A stretch of 64,000 nucleotides of DNA from Clostridia bacterium (GTDB taxonomy: Bacteria > Bacillota > Clostridia > Oscillospirales > CAG-272), in assembly GCA_017403155.1 (NCBI GenBank), contig JAFQOP010000014.1, positions 15,270-79,269 on the forward strand, written 5' to 3'. The notes under the pieces were generated by a model. It did no database searches. It had not been told where the DNA came from and saw nothing but the letters and a program-made list of their open reading frames with translations. Shown one piece after another: positions 2,654-61,670 of the stretch (the stretch's first letter is position 1; each line of letters opens with the position of its first letter). Both the position numbers and the translations under genes were made by a program.

Positions 2654-2682
2654 TTGACTACCGGTACATAATGTGTTATAAT
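2654..2682 (+). promoter_or_regulatory. sigma-A promoter (extended -10) for the fakA operon
   Basis: TTGACT(2654)-N17-TATAAT(2677) with TG at 2674-2675. Confidence 0.75.
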
Positions 2683-2698
2683 AACACCTGTGTTATTA
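2673..2698. promoter_or_regulatory. Candidate repressor operator overlapping -10/+1
   Basis: Perfect inverted repeat TAATAACAC-CT-GTGTTATTA (2679-2698) plus a third GTGTTAT half-site at 2673-2679. Confidence 0.55.
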
Positions 2699-2729
2699 AA
2701 AAAAGTCGATGAAAAGAGAGATTTAATTT

Positions 2730-4391
2730 ATGAACACTATGATTCTTGACGGAAAGACTCTTCGCCGTATGCTTATCGGTGCGGCATCACGGATTAAGGA
2801 TAATTGCGAGCATATAAATGAGCTTAACGTATTTCCCGTCCCCGACGGAGATACGGGAACAAATATGACGAAAACGGTCGAGGGCGGTATAGCCGAGCTT
2901 ACGGGGATTGATCCCGAGGCAGAGGTCTCCGTTTCCGACGTAACTTATAAATTCGCTCACGGCTCTCTTCTCGGTGCACGCGGAAATTCCGGCGTTATTC
3001 TTTCGCAGATATTTGCAGGAATAGAGGAGGAGCTTGTTAAATGCGAGGTCGCTACCGTTATGGACTTCGTAAGAGCATACAGAAACGGAATAACCAAGGC
3101 ATACAACTCGGTTATGAACCCCACCGAGGGTACTATTCTCACGGTATTCAGAGAGGCGACCGAGTATGCTGCAGCAAAGGTCACCGAGGACTCAAGCATT
3201 GAGGATTTCCTCTCTATGCATATTGATGAGGCAAAGCGCTCCCTTGCGCGCACCAAGGATATTCTTCCTGTCCTCAAGGAGGCGGACGTCGTTGACAGCG
3301 GCGGAGCAGGCTACGTATCTATCGCTACGGGCATGTACGATGCCCTGACAGGCACCGAGAGCTTTGACGATTATGAATTCATCGAATCGAATTCCTCGCC
3401 CTCTGCAGTAAACTTTGATGCCTTTACCCGTGATTCTGTGCTCGAGTTCGGATATTGCACCGAGTTCTTTTTGAGGCTTCAGTCGTCCAAGGTCGACCCC
3501 GACAGCTTTGACGTCAGCGTAATAACCGATTTTCTTACCGAAATGGGCGGTGATAGCATCGTATGCTACAAGACCGATGACATCGTAAAGGTGCACGTTC
3601 ATACCGAAAACCCGGGTGAGGTGCTCACGAGAATGCGTACGTTTGGTGAGATGCTCACTATAAAGATAGAGAATATGTCTCTTCAGCACAACGAGAGCGA
3701 GGCTGCGCAGGATAAGCGAGAGCGCGTTGGAATGGCGGTGCTCGCAGTTGCGAGCGGAGAGGGAATGTGCGAGCTCTTTAAATCTATCGGTGCTGACGGT
3801 ATTGTCAGCGGCGGTCAGACCAATAACCCCTCTGCCGAGGAGTTCCTACGCGCCTTCGACGAGGTGAATGCGGATAAGATTCTCGTCCTCCCCAACAACA
3901 AGAATATTTTCTTAACCGCCAAGCAGGCGGCAGCTATGTACGAGGGCTCTGAGGTGTATATAATACCCACAAAGACCCTGATGCAGGGTTATGCAGCGCT
4001 CTCTGTGATAACTCCCGACCCCGATCAGCTTGACTCGATTATAAAGAGCGCAACCGACGCTGCGGAAAACGTAATAGGAGCCGAGATAACCTATGCTGTG
4101 CGCGACGCTGTCATAGGCGGAGCGAGTGTAAAAAAGGATCAATTCATGGCTATCAGCGGCGGAGCAATTAAAGCAACCGCTGATACAGCGCAGGAAACAC
4201 TTATCAATATGCTTGCCTCAGTCGAGGACATTTCGGATTATGAAATTATAACCGTTTTTGTCGGCAAGGATATTGCAGAGGAGGAGCGCGCAGAGGTAAC
4301 CGAGCGAATCGAGGAGCTTTATCCCGACCATGAGGTAATCGTTTATGAGGGTGGACAGGAGGTATACAGCTACCTTCTCGCCATCGAATAA
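2730..4391 (+). CDS. fakA: DAK2-domain fatty acid kinase ATP-binding subunit FakA (YloV family)
   Basis: 553 aa; NELNVFPVPDGDTGTNM, GARGNSGVILSQ, EGTILTV, VVDSGG, YCTEF, HVHT, GGQTNNPS and LPNNKNI motifs. Confidence 0.93.
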   Translation: MNTMILDGKTLRRMLIGAASRIKDNCEHINELNVFPVPDGDTGTNMTKTVEGGIAELTGIDPEAEVSVSDVTYKFAHGSLLGARGNSGVILSQIFAGIEEELVKCEVATVMDFVRAYRNGITKAYNSVMNPTEGTILTVFREATEYAAAKVTEDSSIEDFLSMHIDEAKRSLARTKDILPVLKEADVVDSGGAGYVSIATGMYDALTGTESFDDYEFIESNSSPSAVNFDAFTRDSVLEFGYCTEFFLRLQSSKVDPDSFDVSVITDFLTEMGGDSIVCYKTDDIVKVHVHTENPGEVLTRMRTFGEMLTIKIENMSLQHNESEAAQDKRERVGMAVLAVASGEGMCELFKSIGADGIVSGGQTNNPSAEEFLRAFDEVNADKILVLPNNKNIFLTAKQAAAMYEGSEVYIIPTKTLMQGYAALSVITPDPDQLDSIIKSATDAAENVIGAEITYAVRDAVIGGASVKKDQFMAISGGAIKATADTAQETLINMLASVEDISDYEIITVFVGKDIAEEERAEVTERIEELYPDHEVIVYEGGQEVYSYLLAIE

Positions 4392-4416
4392 GACGTGTAA
4401 TAAGGAGAGGGAAGAT

Positions 4417-5391
4417 ATGAATAAATATTATACGGTGGTACTTGATACCGAGGGAAGCGACAAGGGTCCCGCCATGGTTGCGGAAGGAGCAGCCCTATCG
4501 CTTGAAAAATATCCCGAGCTTAAGCTCGTTCTCGTCGGTAATGAGTCAGCCCTGCGTGCCGAGATGGAAAAGCGCGGTGCCGATGCCGATAGACTTTCAT
4601 ACATCAATGCAACCGAGGTCATAACGAATTACGACAATCCCTCCGTAGCTTTGTTTACCAAGAGAGATTCCTCTCTCGTTAAGGCTCTCGAGGCGGTCAG
4701 CATCAATGACGAGTACGTCGGAATGGTGAATGCGGGCAGCACGGGCGCACTTTTAGCGGGTTCGCTTCGTTATCTTGCTACCCCCGATATGAAGCGCCCT
4801 GCGCTTGCTGCGGTCCTTCCTGCGGAGAGCGGTGGATTTACAGCGCTTGTTGACACTGGTGCCACGATAGATTGCACACCTGCCCAGCTTGTTCACTTTG
4901 CACATCTCGGTAAGGAATTTATAAAAACTCTTTACGGTGTCGAAAATCCCAGAATAGGTATCCTCTCCAACGGTAAGGAGGAAGGAAAGGGTAATAAGCT
5001 CGTCAAGGAGGCATATCAGCTCCTCAAGGCAGAGAGGGAACTAAACTTCGTCGGCAATATTGAGGGCACCAATGCGCTCTCGGGTGACTGCGACGTGCTT
5101 GTGTGCGACGGCTTCGCAGGCAACCAGATACTCAAATGCACCGAGGGAATTGCAAGAAGAATAATTAAGGATATTGTCGTTTTTTCCAAAAAGACGGGCG
5201 ACGAGAGTATCATGAGGGTGGTTGGTCATCTTATGAAGCTCTATGACTTTAATTCTCTCGGCGGCGGTGTTGTGCTCGGTGTCCGTAAGCCCGTAGTAAA
5301 GGCACACGGAGCCGCAAACGAGCAGTCGATAGTAAGCACCGTAGGCATAGTTCTCAACCTTGCGAAAAACAAAAAAATAGAATATAAGTAA
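4417..5391 (+). CDS. PlsX-like acyl-phosphate:ACP acyltransferase (divergent second copy)
   Basis: Start moved to ATG 4417 after AGGAGAGG. Motifs AGSTGA, RPALAAVLP, NGKEEGKG, FVGNIEG, CDGFAGN, KAHG. N-terminal DTEGSD replaces canonical DAMGGD. Confidence 0.88.
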   Translation: MNKYYTVVLDTEGSDKGPAMVAEGAALSLEKYPELKLVLVGNESALRAEMEKRGADADRLSYINATEVITNYDNPSVALFTKRDSSLVKALEAVSINDEYVGMVNAGSTGALLAGSLRYLATPDMKRPALAAVLPAESGGFTALVDTGATIDCTPAQLVHFAHLGKEFIKTLYGVENPRIGILSNGKEEGKGNKLVKEAYQLLKAERELNFVGNIEGTNALSGDCDVLVCDGFAGNQILKCTEGIARRIIKDIVVFSKKTGDESIMRVVGHLMKLYDFNSLGGGVVLGVRKPVVKAHGAANEQSIVSTVGIVLNLAKNKKIEYK

Positions 5392-5409
5392 TTTCAGGAG
5401 GAAATAAAA

Positions 5410-6315
5410 ATGGAAAACAAAAGACTGGTAATGGCTATCTCGTCGGGATGTCTTGACTACGTGCCCGAGGAAATCAAGGATCTTGATATTGATATCATAA
5501 GACTCCACATTTCCTTTAAGGGCAAGGAATACCTTGAGGGCCTTGATCTCGATCCTATAAAGTTCTATGCAGAACTTGAGACTCTTAAGGATGCTAAGAA
5601 CAATCTCCCTAAGACAAGCATGCCGAGCGTTGCGGAGTTCTGCGAGCATTTTGATAAGGCTATCGAAAACGGCTTTAATGAAATTATTATCCTCTCTATA
5701 AGCACCGGTCTCAGCGGCACCTACGGTGTTGCCTGCCAGGTTGCAAAGACCTATGAGGATAGACTGAAGATAACTGTTGTTGACACCAAGACCAACTCCT
5801 TCAACGAGGGTATGCTTGCTGTAAAAGCGGCACAACTTGTTAAGCAGGGAATGTCCACCGAGGATATTCTCAAGGAAATAAACTGGATTATGAAAACGCA
5901 GGAGTTCTTCGGTGTAGACGGAAAGCTCGACTACCTTATCTACAACGGCAGACTAAAGGGTGGCAAGGCTCTTATCGGTAAGATGCTCAGCATCTGCCCC
6001 GTTGTAGGATTTAATAAGGACGGCACTCTCACCTCTTGGGAGACCGTAAGAACTCAGAAAAAGGCTCTTGCGCGTTGCTGCGAAATCCTCAAGGAGAAGA
6101 TTGGCGACAGAGCTCCCGAGGATTATCTGCTCTGGCACTGTCACACGGGTCCCTCGCTTCTCCCGATACTTGAGGAGCTTGAGGCAAAGGTAGGTATCAA
6201 GACGAACCATCCCCCCGTTATGATGTCTCCCGCCAGCGGCTCGCACAACGGTCCCTGGTTCGCAGGCTACGGTCTTATGTTTATCCGCCGTGAGGATGAA
6301 CCCCTCGAGGATTGA
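5410..6315 (+). CDS. DegV family fatty acid-binding protein (FakB)
   Basis: 301 aa; PKTSMPS, ISTGLSGTY, VVDTK, LDYLIYNGRL and SHNGP motifs. Confidence 0.93.
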   Translation: MENKRLVMAISSGCLDYVPEEIKDLDIDIIRLHISFKGKEYLEGLDLDPIKFYAELETLKDAKNNLPKTSMPSVAEFCEHFDKAIENGFNEIIILSISTGLSGTYGVACQVAKTYEDRLKITVVDTKTNSFNEGMLAVKAAQLVKQGMSTEDILKEINWIMKTQEFFGVDGKLDYLIYNGRLKGGKALIGKMLSICPVVGFNKDGTLTSWETVRTQKKALARCCEILKEKIGDRAPEDYLLWHCHTGPSLLPILEELEAKVGIKTNHPPVMMSPASGSHNGPWFAGYGLMFIRREDEPLED

Positions 6316-6332
6316 GGCGGAGGACAGGACAT

Positions 6333-7457
6333 ATGATATCTGTCAGAGAAGTTAAGGGGTCTCGCGATATAAAAAAGTTCGTAGACTTTCCGATAAAGCT
6401 GTATAAAAGGTGCGAATATTTCGTTCCCTGCCTTTATTCTGACGAAAAAAAGCTTCTCTCCGGCAAGACAAGCTACGATGACGTTGCCGAGAGTGCCTTC
6501 TTCCTTGCGGAGAGGGATGGCGAGGTAGTAGGTCGAATCCAGGCGATAATCCAGCGCCAGCACAACGAGCTGACAGGAGAGCGCCGCGTGCGCTTCACTC
6601 GATTTGATGCCATAAACGACCCCGAGGTTTCCGCGGCGCTCTTCCGCGCGGTAGAGGACTTCGGTCGCTCTCGCGGGATGGATATCGTTTGCGGACCTCT
6701 CGGATATTCCGACCTTGATAGGGAGGGAATGCTTATCGAGGGCTTTGACCAGACGCAGACCTTTGAGGAGCAGTATAACTACGATTACTATCCTGCTCTT
6801 ACCGAGGCTTATGGCTTTGAGAAGGAGATTGACTGGCTCGAGTTCAGGCTTTTTGCGCCCGAAGATGGTGCAAATCCCTTCAAGAGAATTGCCGAGCGTG
6901 TCCTCGAGATGCAGAAGCTCCACGTTGCCGACGCCTCGATGCCTAAGCGCGAATACATAGAAAAGTACGGCGACGGTGCCTTTCACTGCATTGACGAGTG
7001 CTATAAGCACCTCTACGGAACGGTACCGATTACCGAGGGAATGAAGAAAGAGCTTATAGACCAGTTTATGCTGGTTCTTGACCCGAAGTATCTCGTTATT
7101 ATTTGCGATGAGAACGAGAGGGTCGTGTCCTTTGCTCTTTGCTTTCCTGCGATGGGTGAGGCTCTCCGTAAGAGCGGCGGCAAGCTTACCCCTGCGGCGC
7201 TCGTCCGTCTTTTCCGTGCTTTGAAAAAGCCGAGGGCTATCGACCTCGGACTTGTTGCCGTTTTACCCGAGTATCAAAACGCGGGTGTCAACGCGGTGTA
7301 TATGGATTATATTATCACACAGCTTACCGAGGGAGGAATCGAGTATTTTGAGACTAATCTCAACCTCGAGACCAACACCCAGGTAATGGCACAGTGGAAA
7401 TATCTGAAGGCGGTGAACCACAAGCGCCGTCGCGCCTATGTTAAGAAAATTGATTAA
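6333..7457 (+). CDS. GNAT-fold N-acyltransferase, YghO/bacterial ceramide synthase (bCerS)-like
   Basis: ATG 6333 after GGAGGACAGGA. Motifs KKFVDFP..LY....FVP.L..DE, GEVVGRI.AII, GPLGYSDLDREGMLIEGFD, YNYDYY, GFEKEIDW, LVAVLPEYQNAGV, LETN and KRRRAY. Confidence 0.7.
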   Translation: MISVREVKGSRDIKKFVDFPIKLYKRCEYFVPCLYSDEKKLLSGKTSYDDVAESAFFLAERDGEVVGRIQAIIQRQHNELTGERRVRFTRFDAINDPEVSAALFRAVEDFGRSRGMDIVCGPLGYSDLDREGMLIEGFDQTQTFEEQYNYDYYPALTEAYGFEKEIDWLEFRLFAPEDGANPFKRIAERVLEMQKLHVADASMPKREYIEKYGDGAFHCIDECYKHLYGTVPITEGMKKELIDQFMLVLDPKYLVIICDENERVVSFALCFPAMGEALRKSGGKLTPAALVRLFRALKKPRAIDLGLVAVLPEYQNAGVNAVYMDYIITQLTEGGIEYFETNLNLETNTQVMAQWKYLKAVNHKRRRAYVKKID

Positions 7458-7471
7458 GGAGAATAGGGAAA

Positions 7472-7693
7472 ATGGAAGAAAAGCTTAAATCAGTTATTGA
7501 AAGAGCGGTTCCCGGTGTTGACGTTTCGGGAATTACAAGAGATACCAAGCTTGTTGAGGAGCTTGGATTTGACTCGCTTGCCCTTATGATGATGGCAATG
7601 GGCATAGAGGATACCTTCGGTTATCGCTTCGAGGAATTTGTGCGCTTTGAGACCGTTGGCGAGGTTCTCGACTACCTCAAGGAAAGAATCTGA
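7472..7693 (+). CDS. Acyl carrier protein (operon-specific, non-canonical)
   Basis: 73 aa, acidic; L.EELGFDSL phosphopantetheine site and TVGEVLDYL helix; RBS AAGGAG. Confidence 0.9.
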   Translation: MEEKLKSVIERAVPGVDVSGITRDTKLVEELGFDSLALMMMAMGIEDTFGYRFEEFVRFETVGEVLDYLKERI

Positions 7694-7712
7694 CCCAGCA
7701 CAGACGGGATAT

Positions 7713-7752
7713 GGCGTAGATGGAGCCTTGCTCTGCTACGCCCTTTCTTTTT
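7713..7752 (+). terminator. Intrinsic terminator ending the fakA-ACP operon
   Basis: GGCGTAG...CTACGCC stem with inner GAGC/GCTC pairing, followed by TTTCTTTTT. Confidence 0.7.
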
Positions 7753-7756
7753 GGAA

Positions 7757-7786
7757 TTGACTTTTAATGTTGTCTTATGCTATAAT
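7757..7786 (+). promoter_or_regulatory. sigma-A promoter for bioY
   Basis: TTGACT-N18-TATAAT with an extended TG. Confidence 0.6.
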
Positions 7787-7814
7787 TTATCTGTTTTTAA
7801 GAAGGGGGTGCTTT

Positions 7815-8348
7815 ATGAAAAAAACGGTTTTGCATGAGCTTGTGCTTATTTCGCTTTTTGCCGCGATCATTTCGGTTTTTTCGCTTATAGCGATCCCGCT
7901 TTTCGGCGTCCCTATCACAATGCAGAGCTTTGCCATTGCGGCATCCCTGTTCTTTCTTGGAGGCAGACGCACCCTTGCTGCGGTAGCATTATATATTGCT
8001 ATCGGCTGTATAGGCTTACCGGTATTTTCGGGCTTCAGCGGCGGCTTCGGTGCACTGGTAGGACCCACGGGCGGATTTATATTCGGCTTTCTTCTTGAGT
8101 CGGCTGCATATTTGCTGATAACAAAAATGCTTGGTACAGGCACGCGAGCAAAGCTTTTGGCATATTTGGTTGGCCATTTGCTTCTTTACCTTGTCGGTGC
8201 TCTTTGGTTTTTCGTAGGATATTCAGACGGAGCATCCCTTGCAGAAACGCTTTGTGCTTCGGTTCTTCCTTTTATAATCCCCGACGGAATAAAGGCTTTC
8301 GTAGCCTATGTAATAGCCTCAAGGCTGAGTATAAAAATAAAAACATAA
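7815..8348 (+). CDS. bioY: Biotin ECF transporter S component BioY
   Basis: VPITMQSF, LYIAIGCIGLPVFSGFSGG, GPTGGFIFGF and PFIIPD..K motifs; ATG 7815 after AAGGGGG. Confidence 0.92.
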   Translation: MKKTVLHELVLISLFAAIISVFSLIAIPLFGVPITMQSFAIAASLFFLGGRRTLAAVALYIAIGCIGLPVFSGFSGGFGALVGPTGGFIFGFLLESAAYLLITKMLGTGTRAKLLAYLVGHLLLYLVGALWFFVGYSDGASLAETLCASVLPFIIPDGIKAFVAYVIASRLSIKIKT

Positions 8349-8416: not shown

Positions 8417-9634
8417 GTGAAATCAATAAAGGATATTTATAAGATAGGTACAGGTCCGTCCAGCTCACACACAATGGGACCCGCAAAGGCTATGTCGATA
8501 TTCGCCTTGGAGAATCCCGATGCGGATAAATATGCCGTAACCCTTTTCGGCTCACTTTCGGATACGGGACGAGGCCACGGCACCGATATTGCAATAAGGG
8601 GTGCGTCGGGAGGCAAGGAGGTTGATATAACCTTCAATTCTGTTGACAGAGAAATTCCGCATGAGAATACAATGGATATTTTTGCCATAAAAAATGGCGA
8701 GATATGTAGCAAAATGCGTGTTATGAGCATAGGTGGCGGAGATATACGCATCGAGGGACGTGATGATAGCGGAGAGGATGAAATATATTCCGAGACAAGC
8801 TTTGCCGAAATTGCAGAATACTGCAAGCACGAGGGAATACGGCTCTCGGACTTCGTATTTATGCGCGAAGGCGAGGGTGTCAAAGCATTTCTGCTTGATG
8901 TTTGGGAGACAATGAAGGCGGCAATCCATCGCGGACTTACCACGTCGGGTATCCTCCCGGGCGGACTTGAGGTTGAGAGAAAGGCGCAGTATCTGTATAA
9001 TCGCAGACACATTGATGAGAGCCCCGTGACTCGGGAGAATAGGGTAGTGTGCTCTTATGCGTATGCTGTAAGCGAGGAAAATGCAGATAACGGAGTCATA
9101 GTAACGGCACCCACCTGCGGTGCGTGTGCTGTGCTTCCCTCTGTGCTTAAATACATGCAGGAGAAGCACGGATTTTCTGATATGCAGATTCTACGCGCTC
9201 TTGCCGTTGCGGGCCTTGTCGGCAATCTTGTTAAGACAAACGCGTCCATAAGCGGAGCAGAGTGTGGCTGTCAGGCGGAGATAGGAACTGCATGCTCCAT
9301 GGCATCCGCGGCACTTGGCGAGCTGTTTGAGATGGGGATAGATCAGATAGAATATGCTGCAGAAATTGCATTCGAGCATCATCTCGGTCTCACCTGTGAC
9401 CCGATTTGCGGATTGGTGCAGATACCCTGCATTGAGCGAAATGCGGTAGCGGCTATGCGCGCAATCAATGCAATGAGCCTTGCTAACTTCCTCTCAGGCT
9501 CTAGAAAAATATCGCTCGACCTTGTTATAAAAACGATGTATGAAACAGGCAAGGACCTCTCCCACCTTTACAGAGAAACCTCGGAGGGCGGACTTGCAAA
9601 GCTATATGAGAGGCATAATAATGGAAAAAGGTAA
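8417..9634 (+). CDS. sdaA: Fe-S-dependent L-serine ammonia-lyase, single-chain form
   Basis: IGTGPSSSHTMGP, TGRGHGTD, VTAPTCGAC, ISGAECGCQAEIG and EHHLGLTCDPICGLVQIPCIERN. Confidence 0.95.
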   Translation: MKSIKDIYKIGTGPSSSHTMGPAKAMSIFALENPDADKYAVTLFGSLSDTGRGHGTDIAIRGASGGKEVDITFNSVDREIPHENTMDIFAIKNGEICSKMRVMSIGGGDIRIEGRDDSGEDEIYSETSFAEIAEYCKHEGIRLSDFVFMREGEGVKAFLLDVWETMKAAIHRGLTTSGILPGGLEVERKAQYLYNRRHIDESPVTRENRVVCSYAYAVSEENADNGVIVTAPTCGACAVLPSVLKYMQEKHGFSDMQILRALAVAGLVGNLVKTNASISGAECGCQAEIGTACSMASAALGELFEMGIDQIEYAAEIAFEHHLGLTCDPICGLVQIPCIERNAVAAMRAINAMSLANFLSGSRKISLDLVIKTMYETGKDLSHLYRETSEGGLAKLYERHNNGKR

Positions 9635-10361: not shown

Positions 10362-11633
10362 ATGAGTATACAGTCTTTTCTTCCGCCTGTTATCATAGCC
10401 TGCGGCTCATATATGCTGATAAGGCTTCGTTTTTTCACTTTTCTTTCACCCCACCGCGTGCTGGGACGGTGCAGACGCACGCTCTCTTCAAAAAAAGCGA
10501 GGTCAAATCTTGCCCTCGCTCTTGCCGGCACACTCGGCGTCGGTAACATTGTCGGTGTCGCAGTGGGTATTTCAGTCGGGGGAAGCGGCGCACTTTTCTG
10601 GATACTTATATCCTCAGTTTTTTCATCGGTACTTAAATATTCGGAGGCAACACTGTCGTCCTATTGCGGCAATTGCGGCTATGGCTTTATGCCTGTGCTG
10701 GAGCATTTCTTTCCACGGCGCGGCCGCATGCTCGGAAGACTGTACGCTATGTGTTGCCTTTTGCTTTCCTTTGTGCTTGGGGCCGCCCTGCAGTCTTCTG
10801 CGGTCTTTGGTGTTAGCGGACTAGAGGAGCAACACGCACTTCTTGTGTGGTGCGCTATGTCGCTCTCAGCTATGCTTATCGTTGCTAGAGGCGGGGAGAT
10901 AATCAGACGCTTTACACTCCGAGTCGTACCGTTAGCCACGCTTGCTTACGTTCTTCTCTGTCTTTTCGTCATCTTGAGAAATATAGCAGATGTTCCCACT
11001 GTCCTTGCTCGCGTTATTTCCTCTGCCTTTACCGTTGACGGTGGTGCCGGTGGAGCTGTCGGTGCTATAACCTCAAAGGCTGTTGGTGAGGGCTTTTCTC
11101 GAGGTCTTTTGTCTAACGAAGCGGGCGCGGGCACATCCTCTCTTGCTACCTCAGACGGTGTAGAGCACCCAACCGATGCGGGAATACTCGGGCTGCTTGA
11201 GGTAGTGTTTGACACAGTTCTTTTATGTACCCTTACAGGGCTTGCCGTTCTTGTATGTATACCTGATCCTACGGTGTATATCTCGGGAGCGCAGCTTGTG
11301 CGCGAGAGCATCGGGGCAGAGCTGGGTGCATTTTCATCCGTATTGGTTACCTGCCTAATATTTGTTTTTGCCTTTTCCACGGTCGTGTGCTGGTATTATT
11401 ACGGCATAAGATGCCTCAGCTACCTTACAAAGCGCTTTGTCGGCATATATACGGCAGCCTTCCTCGGGTGTGTTGCATTTTTGCCGGTTGTAGGAGAGTC
11501 TGTTCTATTTTGTGTATCCGACGTTCTTTTGCTTATACTGACTCTTTTAACTGTTACGTGTATAATAAAAGGCTCCGACAAGATCAGGACCTTGTCGGAG
11601 CTTTCCGGGCTTTTTCCCTTTACTCGGCGTTGA
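10362..11633 (+). CDS. Alanine/glycine:cation symporter (AGCS) family protein
   Basis: ALAGTLGVGNIVGVA, GGSGALFW, KYSE, RGLLSNEAGAG, EVVFDTVLLCTLTG and FAFST motifs. Confidence 0.9.
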   Translation: MSIQSFLPPVIIACGSYMLIRLRFFTFLSPHRVLGRCRRTLSSKKARSNLALALAGTLGVGNIVGVAVGISVGGSGALFWILISSVFSSVLKYSEATLSSYCGNCGYGFMPVLEHFFPRRGRMLGRLYAMCCLLLSFVLGAALQSSAVFGVSGLEEQHALLVWCAMSLSAMLIVARGGEIIRRFTLRVVPLATLAYVLLCLFVILRNIADVPTVLARVISSAFTVDGGAGGAVGAITSKAVGEGFSRGLLSNEAGAGTSSLATSDGVEHPTDAGILGLLEVVFDTVLLCTLTGLAVLVCIPDPTVYISGAQLVRESIGAELGAFSSVLVTCLIFVFAFSTVVCWYYYGIRCLSYLTKRFVGIYTAAFLGCVAFLPVVGESVLFCVSDVLLLILTLLTVTCIIKGSDKIRTLSELSGLFPFTRR

Positions 11634-58556: not shown

Positions 58557-59902
58557 TGCAGGACAAACCTACAATTAGAGTTATCGGTGCGGGGCTCGCA
58601 GGCTGCGAGGCGGCATATCAGGCAGCTAGGCTTGGCGCCTTCGTTGAGCTTTACGAGATGAAGCCGCACAAATTTTCGCCCGCTCACCACAGCCCCACCT
58701 TTGCCGAGCTTGTGTGCTCCAATTCCTTGCGCTCCAACGTAACCTCCAATGCAGTAGGCCTCCTCAAGGAGGAGCTAAAAAGAATGGGCTCTTTGATTAT
58801 GGAGGCGGCATATGCTACCGAGGTTCCTGCGGGAAGCGCTCTGGCAGTAAACCGCGAGGATTTTTCGGCGTATATTACCGAAAGGATAAAATCAAATCCG
58901 AGCATCAGAGTCATAGAGGGCGAGGTAACCGATATTCCCGAGGACGGCATTACGGTCATCGCGACAGGACCGCTGACGAGCGATGCACTTGCGGAGCATA
59001 TATCCGCGCTGACAGGCGGTGCAGAGCTTCATTTCTTTGACGCGGCGGCACCTATTATAGATTTTTCGAGCGTTGATATGTCACGTGCCTTTTTTGCCTC
59101 GCGTTACGGCAAGGGCGAGCCTACGGACTATCTTAACTGTCCTATGACAGCAGAGGAGTACGATGTGTTTTACCGTGCACTTATTTCTGCAGAGGGTGCA
59201 CCTCTGAAGGATTTTGATAGGGAGAGCCAGGCAGAGCCCACCGTTTTTGAGGGATGTATGCCCGTTGAGGTTATGGCAAAGCGCGGATATGACACTCTTC
59301 GGTTTGGACCGATGAAGCCCGTTGGACTTCCGTGCCCCGATACGGGGGAGGACGCGTTTGCCACGGTGCAGCTTCGTCGCGAAAACAGAGAGGGCACGAT
59401 GTATAATATAGTCGGCTTCCAGACGCATCTTACCTTTCCCGAGCAAAGGCGTGTTTTTAGAATGATACCGGGTCTTGAAAACGCAGAGTTCCTCAGATAC
59501 GGTGTTATGCACAGAAACACATATCTCAATTCCCCGGGATTTTTGACAAGCATTTATTCGGTTGCAAATAACCCCAACCTGTTCTTCGCAGGACAGATGA
59601 CCGGTGTTGAGGGATATGTTGAGTCAACGTCCTCCGGCTTCGTTGCGGGAATAAACGCGGCACTGAGGGCGCTTGGCAGAGAGGCGGTTGTATTTCCTAG
59701 AGAATGCGAGATTGGTGCGCTTGCACACTACGTCAGTGAGGGCGGCGTCAGCTCCGACTTTCAGCCAATGAATGCTAACTTTGGAATAATTGCTCCGTTT
59801 GATAAGAAAATTAAAGGAGGAAAGAGAGTGAGAAACGAGGCATATGCAGAGCGCTCGCTTGAAATAATAGATACCCGTTTTTCATATCTTAAGAACTCAT
59901 GA
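58556..59902 (+). CDS. trmFO: Folate/FAD-dependent tRNA m5U54 methyltransferase
   Basis: GAGLAGCEAA, ELVCSNSL, FEGCMP, VGFQT and AGQMTGVEGYVES. Confidence 0.96.
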   Translation: MQDKPTIRVIGAGLAGCEAAYQAARLGAFVELYEMKPHKFSPAHHSPTFAELVCSNSLRSNVTSNAVGLLKEELKRMGSLIMEAAYATEVPAGSALAVNREDFSAYITERIKSNPSIRVIEGEVTDIPEDGITVIATGPLTSDALAEHISALTGGAELHFFDAAAPIIDFSSVDMSRAFFASRYGKGEPTDYLNCPMTAEEYDVFYRALISAEGAPLKDFDRESQAEPTVFEGCMPVEVMAKRGYDTLRFGPMKPVGLPCPDTGEDAFATVQLRRENREGTMYNIVGFQTHLTFPEQRRVFRMIPGLENAEFLRYGVMHRNTYLNSPGFLTSIYSVANNPNLFFAGQMTGVEGYVESTSSGFVAGINAALRALGREAVVFPRECEIGALAHYVSEGGVSSDFQPMNANFGIIAPFDKKIKGGKRVRNEAYAERSLEIIDTRFSYLKNS

Positions 59903-60939
59903 GAATAATAGTTGACGTAATGAGTGGCGACAACGCGCCGCTTGAGATAATAAAGGGTGCCGTTCTCGCAGCAGAGGAGTATGAGGCAACCATCGTTATG
60001 GTCGGAGACGAGAACGTTATATCCGACATTTGCGTAAAAAATGATATAAAGCTTCCCGAGAATACAGAAATTGTAAACGCCGCCTCTGTAATCAGCATGG
60101 AGGATAAGCCCATGTCCGTTGTTCGTGACAAAAAGGATTCCTCGATGAGCGTAGGACTCCGTATGCTGGCAAACGGCGAGGGCGACGCCTTTGTAAGCGC
60201 GGGTAATACGGGTGCACTAGTAACGGGTGCGACTCTCATTGTGCGCCGTATCGTGGGTATAAACCGTCCTGCGATAGCCTCGGTGCTTCCCCTTGCCAAT
60301 CCCGTCCTTCTTATGGACTCGGGCGCCAACCTTACCGTAACGTCGGACAACATCGTCCAGTTTGCGTTTATGGGTGCTAAGTATATGGAAAAGATATACG
60401 GCATAGACCGTCCGAGAGTCGGTCAGCTTAATAACGGTACAGAGTATAATAAGGGAAACGAGCTTCAGGTTGAGTCATATCAGACTCTATCCGAGAGCGG
60501 ACTGAACTTTGTCGGCAACGTTGAATCCAAGGCTGTTCCGTTCGGTGTGTGCGACGTTCTTGTTTGCGACGGATACACGGGTAACATATTCTTAAAGAGC
60601 GTTGAGGGCATGGGAAAGTTCATGATGGATATTCTCAAGGACGTTCTTTATACCAACATAGCAACGCAGGTATCCGCCCTTACCATGAAGAGCAAGCTGC
60701 GCGATATCAAGCATAGATTCGATTCCTCCGAGCACGGCGGCGCGCCTATCCTCGGTGTAACAAAGCCTGTAATAAAGGCGCACGGCTCGTCTGATGCCAA
60801 CGCAATTAAAAATGCAATCAGGCAGGCCATTCACTTCGTTGATTCGGGTATCAACAAGGATATTATCAGCTTTGCGGCAGATTACGATGAGAAGAAGCTG
60901 CTCGCAGATGCTGAAAAAATGTACGGAACAAGAGTGTAA
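59899..60939 (+). CDS. plsX: Phosphate acyltransferase PlsX (housekeeping copy)
   Basis: VDVMSGDNAP, SAGNTGA, RPAIA, DSGAN, DGYTGN and KAHGSS; canonical plsX-rnc-smc context. Confidence 0.95.
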   Translation: MRIIVDVMSGDNAPLEIIKGAVLAAEEYEATIVMVGDENVISDICVKNDIKLPENTEIVNAASVISMEDKPMSVVRDKKDSSMSVGLRMLANGEGDAFVSAGNTGALVTGATLIVRRIVGINRPAIASVLPLANPVLLMDSGANLTVTSDNIVQFAFMGAKYMEKIYGIDRPRVGQLNNGTEYNKGNELQVESYQTLSESGLNFVGNVESKAVPFGVCDVLVCDGYTGNIFLKSVEGMGKFMMDILKDVLYTNIATQVSALTMKSKLRDIKHRFDSSEHGGAPILGVTKPVIKAHGSSDANAIKNAIRQAIHFVDSGINKDIISFAADYDEKKLLADAEKMYGTRV

Positions 60940-60956
60940 GATTTAAAGGAGGATGT

Positions 60957-61670
60957 ATGTCGATAGGCAGAGAGCTCACAGAGCTGTACGGTATAATTGG
61001 ATATTCCTTTCGTGATATATCGTATCTTGAAAACGCGATGACACACTCCTCCTATGCCAACGAGCGCCGCGGCAAGGGGATATATCCCTCTAATGAGAGA
61101 CTTGAATTTCTCGGAGATGCGGTGCTTGAAATGGTTATATCAGAGCATCTTTACGAGAACTTTGCTGGTAAAAGCGAGGGAACACTCACTAAAATGCGTC
61201 AGTATCTCGTATGCGAGAAGACCCTTGCCAAAATTGCAAATGAGATATCACTTGGAGAATTTCTGAACGTTGGGCGCGGCGAGGAGCTTACCGACTGCCG
61301 AAAAAGACCAAAGGTGCTTGCAGACGCTCTGGAGGCACTTATTGCCGCAATATATCTCGATTCGGGCAGGTCGCTCGAATTTGCAGCTCGCTCGGTGATA
61401 CTGTCCTTGTTCGGGGCTCAGATTGATAATTGCCCCGATATGCAGAAGGGCGATTTCAAGACCCTTTTGCAGCAGCTTGTTGAAAAGGATGGCGCGGCGC
61501 TCCTCGAATACCGCGTAGTAAACGAGGAGGGACCGGAGCATGACAAGGTGTTTACCGTAGAGGCTCTTGTAAATAACAACGTCGTGGGCAAGGGAAGCGC
61601 TACCACCAAGAAGGATGCGGAGCAGCTTGCTGCAAGAGATGCGCTTGCTCTGTTTGGTATTTCCGTATGA
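60957..61670 (+). CDS. rnc: Ribonuclease III
   Basis: THSSYANE, NERLEFLGDAVL, ADALEA and dsRBD (GPEHDK, KKDAEQ.AA). Confidence 0.97.
   Translation: MSIGRELTELYGIIGYSFRDISYLENAMTHSSYANERRGKGIYPSNERLEFLGDAVLEMVISEHLYENFAGKSEGTLTKMRQYLVCEKTLAKIANEISLGEFLNVGRGEELTDCRKRPKVLADALEALIAAIYLDSGRSLEFAARSVILSLFGAQIDNCPDMQKGDFKTLLQQLVEKDGAALLEYRVVNEEGPEHDKVFTVEALVNNNVVGKGSATTKKDAEQLAARDALALFGISV

Follow-up and report, generated by a model that had tools for sequence, protein, structure and literature searches.

We analysed a window of 64,000 nucleotides (nt) from the Clostridia bacterium assembly GCA_017403155.1 (contig JAFQOP010000014.1, positions 15,270 to 79,269), in which five co-oriented open reading frames (ORFs) on the + strand constitute one unit at window positions 2654–7752: A strong promoter is followed by fakA, a divergent plsX, degV/fakB, the gene of a tandem-GNAT protein, the gene of an acyl carrier protein (ACP), and a hairpin terminator (Table 1). 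With ATG starts the intergenic gaps measure 25, 18, 17, and 14 nt, and a GGAG-type ribosome-binding site precedes each of the five starts. Alternative upstream frame starts exist for plsX2 (4345, the likely ATG being 4417) and for the GNAT gene (6312, which gives a 381-residue frame; ATG 6333). The terminator hairpin occupies 7713–7742 on the 3′ side of the ACP stop codon and is followed by CTTTCTTTTT; none of 200 shuffles was equally stable, and a simple terminator scan missed the structure because of its internal bulge. An initial annotation made from the letters of the window had described this gene content, the co-orientation, gaps of 14–25 nt, the promoter, and the terminator, and it proved correct in every particular when compared with the ORFs, profiles, promoter scan, and fold; the housekeeping plsX that it had placed apart from the operon is likewise present.

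Table 1. Features of the operon and the separate housekeeping plsX (window coordinates).
Feature	Position	Strand	Evidence
Sigma-70-type promoter TTGACT-17-TATAAT, extended -10 TG	2654..2682	+	11/12 consensus matches
fakA2, fatty acid kinase catalytic subunit, second copy	2730..4391	+	TIGR03599 540 bits, full length
plsX2, divergent acyl-phosphate:ACP transacylase paralogue	4417..5391	+	PF02504, TIGR00182; 36% identity to plsX1
degV/fakB, fatty-acid-binding subunit of fatty acid kinase	5410..6315	+	PF02645, TIGR00762
374-residue tandem-GNAT putative acyltransferase, YghO/bacterial-ceramide-synthase-like family, fak-linked clade	6333..7457	+	YghO homology, AF2, tree, neighbours
ACP2, putatively dedicated acyl carrier protein, 73 residues	7472..7693	+	PF00550, DSL attachment motif
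Intrinsic terminator, 13-pair bulged hairpin + T-tract	7713..7752	+	−23.3 kcal/mol, z −3.4
plsX1, housekeeping paralogue, outside the operon (context)	59899..60939	+	rnc directly after

Four of the five proteins belong to families of fatty acid activation and carriage. FakA2 is covered by TIGR03599 from residue 1 to 530 of 530 (540.5 bits, cut-off 396.1) and displays the architecture Dak2, FakA-like_M, and FakA-like_C, while its score on the S. aureus-type equivalog NF038248 (430 bits) lies below the cut-off of 975. PlsX2 gives a full-length match to PF02504 (FA_synthesis; positions 2–316 of 324, 245.6 bits against a threshold of 29.1) and narrowly fails the NCBIfam equivalog test TIGR00182 (239.5 bits, cut-off 243.4); the plsX1 product reaches 327 bits on PF02504. 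DegV/FakB matches PF02645 with 200.8 bits and TIGR00762 with 217.8 bits (cut-off 99.7), and its best solved relatives are 3lup, 3fys, and 4x9x, solved FakB proteins being among the matches. ACP2 passes PF00550 (33.9 bits against 20.8) and falls below the cut-off of all NCBIfam ACP models, which marks it as a divergent ACP; its Asp-Ser phosphopantetheine attachment site, D34-S35, is invariant in 40 orthologues.

All four of these lipid genes are second copies in the source assembly (1.51 Mb, 21 contigs, 87% complete), which fits the idea of the initial annotation that the operon forms a dedicated line. The other fakA (contig C1, 21642–23357), whose product is 43% identical to FakA2, adjoins the other degV on that contig, the genome containing three degV genes in all, including the operon copy; the other ACP gene (ACP1; contig C14, 239614–239817) is isolated next to a ClpB-like gene. 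The genome also encodes PlsY and PlsC. The housekeeping plsX1 is followed by rnc (window 59899–61670) with no acpP in between, an arrangement shared by genome G345, and genome G367 has the order plsX-acp-rnc. The genome yielded no match for ketoacyl synthase (PF00109) or FabA/FabZ (PF07977) at its 87% completeness, and 23 of 24 further genomes of the genus, many of which are 95–99% complete, likewise gave no PF00109 match. On this basis the genus looks devoid of type II fatty acid synthesis, and thus, as far as sequence can tell, like a fatty acid auxotroph. In genome G022, two ketoacyl-synthase matches lie inside 811-residue frames.

The fifth protein is poorly described by profile libraries. 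Its only library match is a weak one to Acetyltransf_1 (PF00583; 30.7 bits against 20.7) over residues 250–348 of the 381-residue frame, that is, in the C-terminal half, where the YQxxG donor-site motif appears as YQNAG at residues 314–318. The NCBIfam scan gave no family, the ESM Atlas only generic cluster names ("GNAT / N-acetyltransferase"), and searches of PDB sequences with the protein alone or with a 101-sequence profile found no close solved relative, their matches being generic GNAT ones within the C-terminal domain. An AF2 model built from 101 sequences (mean pLDDT 95.6) predicts a tandem-GNAT fold: The top Foldseek matches in the PDB are all tandem GNATs at probability 1.00, namely 2wpw, 5kf1, 7q3a, and MshD, with TM-scores of 0.54–0.61 (query-normalised) and 9–12% identity. 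The family is very large: 5700 of 8000 scored candidates have E ≤ 1e-3, and a search of clusters at 50% identity gave 4492 matches, nearly all of about 375 residues and matching end to end.

The initial annotation had assigned this protein to the group of E. coli YghO and the bacterial ceramide synthase (bCerS), an assignment that stands at the level of the family and does not extend to the clade. In favour of the family, the GNAT is 28% identical to YghO over its full length (377 residues, E = 1e-39), the hhalign probability is 100, both proteins share the tandem-GNAT architecture of about 375 residues, and of the 22 positions that are invariant or almost so in the family alignment, YghO keeps 16. 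In a FastTree phylogeny of 269 rows, however, the window GNAT falls into a supported clade that holds 75 rows, of which 64 are fak-linked, while YghO belongs to a separate supported clade together with 13 Clostridial paralogues, none of which is fak-linked.

Synteny supports the placement of the bacterial ceramide synthase in the YghO family. At a non-K-12 E. coli locus (L028:4506–10103), yghO lies beside genes for a fatty acyl-AMP ligase, an NAD-dependent epimerase/dehydratase, an ACP, an annotated serine palmitoyltransferase (spt), and lptG and lptF. This set matches the ceramide cluster of Caulobacter, given in PMC11324152 as aasR, cerR, acpR, and spt, then second copies of lptF/lptG and cerS, which makes YghO a ceramide-synthase-type gene. 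In E. coli K-12 (L027:14044–16341), an IS5 element runs up to the 5′ end of yghO and overlaps it, and spt, the ACP, the reductase, the acyl-AMP ligase, and lptFG are missing there. According to a preprint, deletion of the Bacteroides fragilis homologue of the Caulobacter ceramide synthase leads to accumulation of 3-ketosphinganine (10.1101/2023.05.23.541633). Homologue searches with E. coli YghO returned only enterobacterial proteins named "N-acetyltransferase" (79–99% identity) and no naming link to the Caulobacter enzyme; YghO also appears in the strain and plasmid tables of an E. coli lysine-acetyltransferase screen (PMC6199490), which say nothing about its function. Ceramide synthases are the only characterised members of the family. 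By sequence, the window GNAT is a member of the YghO family, yet this evidence does not make it a ceramide synthase.

The association of the five genes is not a peculiarity of one genome. Among 80 loci from as many species-level genomes of uncultured animal-gut Clostridia (GNAT identity 52–71%; labelled Oscillospiraceae, Christensenellaceae, Ca. Scatosoma, and others), the order fakA>plsX>degV>GNAT>acp is identical in 46, and at least one of fakA, plsX, degV, and acp adjoins the GNAT gene in 70, several incomplete cases being cut by contig ends; co-conservation, as expected by the initial annotation, is thereby borne out. Moreover, linkage persists in the variant orders fakA>degV>GNAT>plsX>acp and degV>GNAT>plsX>acp and has therefore survived rearrangement. 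The complete operon is present at three of 15 loci taken from relatives. Within the genus of the window, the GNAT family occurs in nine of 24 genomes and an operon-type copy (at least 61% identity) in only four of those nine: three have the full operon, and a contig end truncates it in the fourth. A PlsX of the divergent type (236–258 bits) was found only in G000 (the source assembly), G003, G007, and G023, with a fragment in G005, the same genomes that have the operon-type GNAT, which argues that the module is accessory. Five further genomes were inspected for separate copies, and three of them contain a second, housekeeping plsX, before (acpP-)rnc or elsewhere.

Beyond close homologues, a class-wide sample of 399 genomes contained the GNAT family in 64, and members below about 44% identity reside mostly in unrelated gene contexts, as judged by Pfam scans of 20 neighbours of distant members. 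One distant member (35% identity) lies at L132:5131–8125 beside a divergently transcribed AMP-binding enzyme and an ACP, which from their families are an alternative ACP-loading module next to the same GNAT family. At L134:6120–9273, two GNAT-family genes in tandem come after degV, and the product of each is 34% identical to the window GNAT.

Additionally, we asked whether structure prediction pairs the GNAT with ACP2. The predicted complex scored 0.57, the best of three controls 0.00; between runs, at least 93% of contacts coincide, and the pLDDT of the partner is at least 86. We regard this as a weak pass: Of 80 solved complexes 58 reach the mark, as do two of 110 mismatched pairs, only seven of the 80 solved complexes reach it with a score of 0.60 or less, a range that also holds both passing mismatches, and solved enzyme–ACP complexes may be remembered by the model. 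The prediction consequently lends weak support to ACP2 as the partner of the GNAT.

With moderate confidence, we favour the reading that the operon is an accessory, self-contained module for acyl activation and transfer in a gut Clostridium without type II fatty acid synthesis. For the FakA/FakB families it is established that a fatty acid bound by FakB is phosphorylated by FakA, and for the PlsX family that acyl-phosphate is converted to acyl-ACP. In the window operon, DegV/FakB would accordingly bind an exogenous fatty acid and FakA2 phosphorylate it, PlsX2 would then move the acyl group from the acyl-phosphate to ACP2, and the GNAT would finally take the acyl chain from acyl-ACP2 and place it on an acceptor. 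We infer the pairing of PlsX2 with ACP2 and the GNAT step from gene linkage, paralogy, and the nature of the characterised relatives of the GNAT. By analogy with these relatives, the acceptor is probably an amine and the product amide-linked; the operon encodes no acceptor-making gene, and the reaction may also be the N-acylation of a lipid head group. With copies of FakA, PlsX, and ACP of its own, the module could keep its acyl pool apart from the route via FakA1/FakB, PlsX1, and ACP1 that would feed PlsY and PlsC. FakAB and PlsX would thereby play the role that the acyl-ACP synthetase AasR has for AcpR in proteobacterial sphingolipid clusters. This substitution had been suggested by the initial annotation; it has to be softened in view of a 563-residue AMP-binding, FadD-like protein encoded in the genome, for which matches to fatty-acid-CoA ligases remain sub-threshold.

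Several observations weigh against this interpretation. Because of the FadD-like protein, an acyl-CoA donor for the GNAT is possible, and no AcpS/phosphopantetheinyl transferase (PF01648) was found in the 87%-complete genome despite its two ACPs. Ten of the 80 close homologues have no partner gene nearby. In G209 and G413, which belong to one other genus, the operon-linked PlsX is the only PlsX found, so that the module may not always be separate from housekeeping lipid synthesis. The characterised relatives of the GNAT are only about 28% identical and lie outside its clade, and YghO deviates from the family at R87, G124, Y148, N149, Y152, and G318, that is, in the YNxxY motif and at the glycine of YQxxG; donor and acceptor are therefore not transferable by homology. 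The weakness of the GNAT–ACP2 prediction has to be counted here as well.

Which acceptor would be used divides the alternatives. As a tentative possibility, clearly less probable than the general scheme, the acceptor may be an amino acid, a biogenic amine, or a polyamine, and the product a membrane aminolipid, a signal, or the outcome of neutralising toxic dietary unsaturated fatty acids. A ubiquitous metabolite would suit an operon in which no acceptor-making gene is conserved, and ligand induction would suit a TetR-like gene that lies directly upstream of fakA in 28 of the 80 loci. This gene is the only other conserved neighbour; it encodes about 184 residues (e.g., L061:3841–4395) with an N-terminal helix-turn-helix judged by eye, but it has no Pfam match and is absent from the window. 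A distant homologue of it is encoded in the source genome (contig C7, 81412–81906). The origin of the 80 loci from metagenome-assembled genomes of the animal gut is in line with N-acyl amide formation, too. A preprint on labelled linoleic acid in gut communities reports N-acyl glycine, taurine, ethanolamine, and other amides, and calls their microbial synthesis unclear (10.1101/2025.09.11.675017). Against the proposal, the N-acyl amino acid synthases known from bacteria are, to our knowledge, members of a different family.

Ceramide salvage, to which the initial annotation had leaned, appears improbable. Here sphinganine, sphingosine, or 3-ketosphinganine from the host, the diet, or neighbouring Bacteroidota would be acylated to ceramide, either for the membrane or to detoxify the base. 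What speaks for it is that the only characterised relatives of the GNAT are ceramide synthases (YghO by synteny; PMC11324152, PMC11087976, and 10.1101/2023.05.23.541633), and that whether a bacterial sphingolipid salvage pathway exists is called unclear in PMC11324152. E. coli protein queries revealed no homologue of Spt, CerR, or AasR in the 87%-complete genome except for one weak AMP-binding match, and the five matches to the class I/II aminotransferases (PF00155) include three strong ones that are of the AspC or HisC type and not alpha-oxoamine synthases; any sphingoid base would hence have to come from outside. As the initial annotation had stated, operon and window contain no Spt, and the genome search that it advised for spt, cerR, and genes of type II fatty acid synthesis gave no spt or cerR and no ketoacyl synthase or FabA/FabZ at 87% completeness. 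However, the GNAT and YghO differ in clade and in conserved motifs, not one of 135 Clostridial family loci has an Spt neighbour within about 7 kb, and neighbour clustering of the 80 loci disclosed no further conserved enzyme gene and no conserved transporter or other sphingolipid gene. With its 4492 clusters, the family is also too large for most of its members to be ceramide synthases. Nothing in the data thus favours sphingoid bases over other acceptors.

We also give little credence to a GNAT that is not fed by ACP at all, be it an acetyl- or short-acyl-CoA transferase acting on a protein or small molecule tied to the uptake of fatty acids, with regulatory acylation of Fak, PlsX, or ACP as one example, or a mere passenger in an operon that serves as a second phospholipid-precursor route for a special class of fatty acids. 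Acetyl-CoA-using tandem GNATs are indeed the nearest solved folds, a FadD-like gene is present, and G209 and G413 show an operon-linked PlsX alone. Yet the GNAT gene stays beside degV, fakA, plsX, and acp through several changes of gene order in many species, it occurs with an ACP and a PlsX paralogue of its own, its characterised relatives transfer long acyl chains, and the predicted complex with ACP2 passed, if weakly. Two further candidates were rejected: lipoprotein N-acylation, since the GNAT model has neither signal peptide nor membrane segment and the relatives are described as cytoplasmic in PMC11087976, and aminoacyl-tRNA-dependent transfer (fold like L-PGS, Sbb17 type), since the conserved partners are fatty-acid-activating proteins.

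Downstream of the operon, the next gene is bioY (7757–8348), which has a strong promoter of its own (TTGACT-18-TATAAT with TG, 7757–7786). This promoter overlaps the first ATG of the ORF, and the true start is probably ATG 7815, after a GGGGG ribosome-binding site. The bioY gene is followed by a gene for a single-chain L-serine dehydratase of 405 residues (8417–9634), whose match to the beta-chain profile is limited to the first 64 positions, and by one for an AgcS-type Na+:alanine/glycine symporter (10362–11633). A similar symporter lies downstream in five of the 80 loci, probably through synteny between closely related genomes, although an amino-acid link to the GNAT acceptor is possible.

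The operon is conserved and clearly delimited. Fak/PlsX is known as the phospholipid salvage route of Firmicutes; if our reading is correct, the operon would be the first case of Fak/PlsX loading a dedicated carrier protein on the way to a product other than a phospholipid. It also supplies a function-bearing context for one clade of a GNAT family that is very large and has no name. We found no description of the FakAB-PlsX-GNAT-ACP architecture in the full-text literature searched, which largely leaves subscription journals uncovered. Two questions are touched: The microbial gut enzymes that make N-acyl amides from dietary fatty acids are called unclear (10.1101/2025.09.11.675017), and so is bacterial salvage of sphingoid bases (PMC11324152). 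On paper, the compact operon of five genes would need no further genes. Should ceramide salvage hold true after all, it would represent a bacterial sphingolipid salvage pathway and allow fatty-acid-auxotrophic gut Firmicutes to make sphingolipids without Spt.

Among known systems, the solved tandem GNATs (2wpw of the clavulanic acid pathway, the glucosamine N-acetyltransferase 5kf1, MAB_4324 in 7q3a, and MshD in 1ozp) resemble the window GNAT in the fold of two GNAT domains and in the donor-binding motif of the C-terminal domain. They use acetyl-CoA, however, and at the low identities and TM-scores given above they are distant from it. Closer in composition is the sphingolipid cluster of Proteobacteria (Caulobacter and non-K-12 E. 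coli), which likewise combines a tandem GNAT of the YghO family, a dedicated ACP, and an ACP-loading enzyme. The loading module differs, being FakA/FakB and PlsX in the window and an acyl-AMP ligase in the proteobacterial cluster; moreover, the window operon has neither Spt nor CerR, its GNAT belongs to another clade than YghO, and its host is, unlike the hosts of that cluster, a Gram-positive-type Clostridium without outer membrane. The proposed roles of the carrier proteins differ as well: The special ACP of Rhodobacteria is described in PMC11324152 as serving Spt and not the N-acyltransferase, whereas ACP2 is proposed to serve the GNAT. With the FakAB-PlsX pathway by which Firmicutes use exogenous fatty acids, the operon shares the protein families and presumably the chemistry, from fatty acid via acyl-phosphate to acyl-ACP (PMC10146087). 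In contrast to that pathway, the genes of the window are extra paralogues, united in one operon with an ACP and a GNAT of their own, while the housekeeping copies lie elsewhere in the genome.

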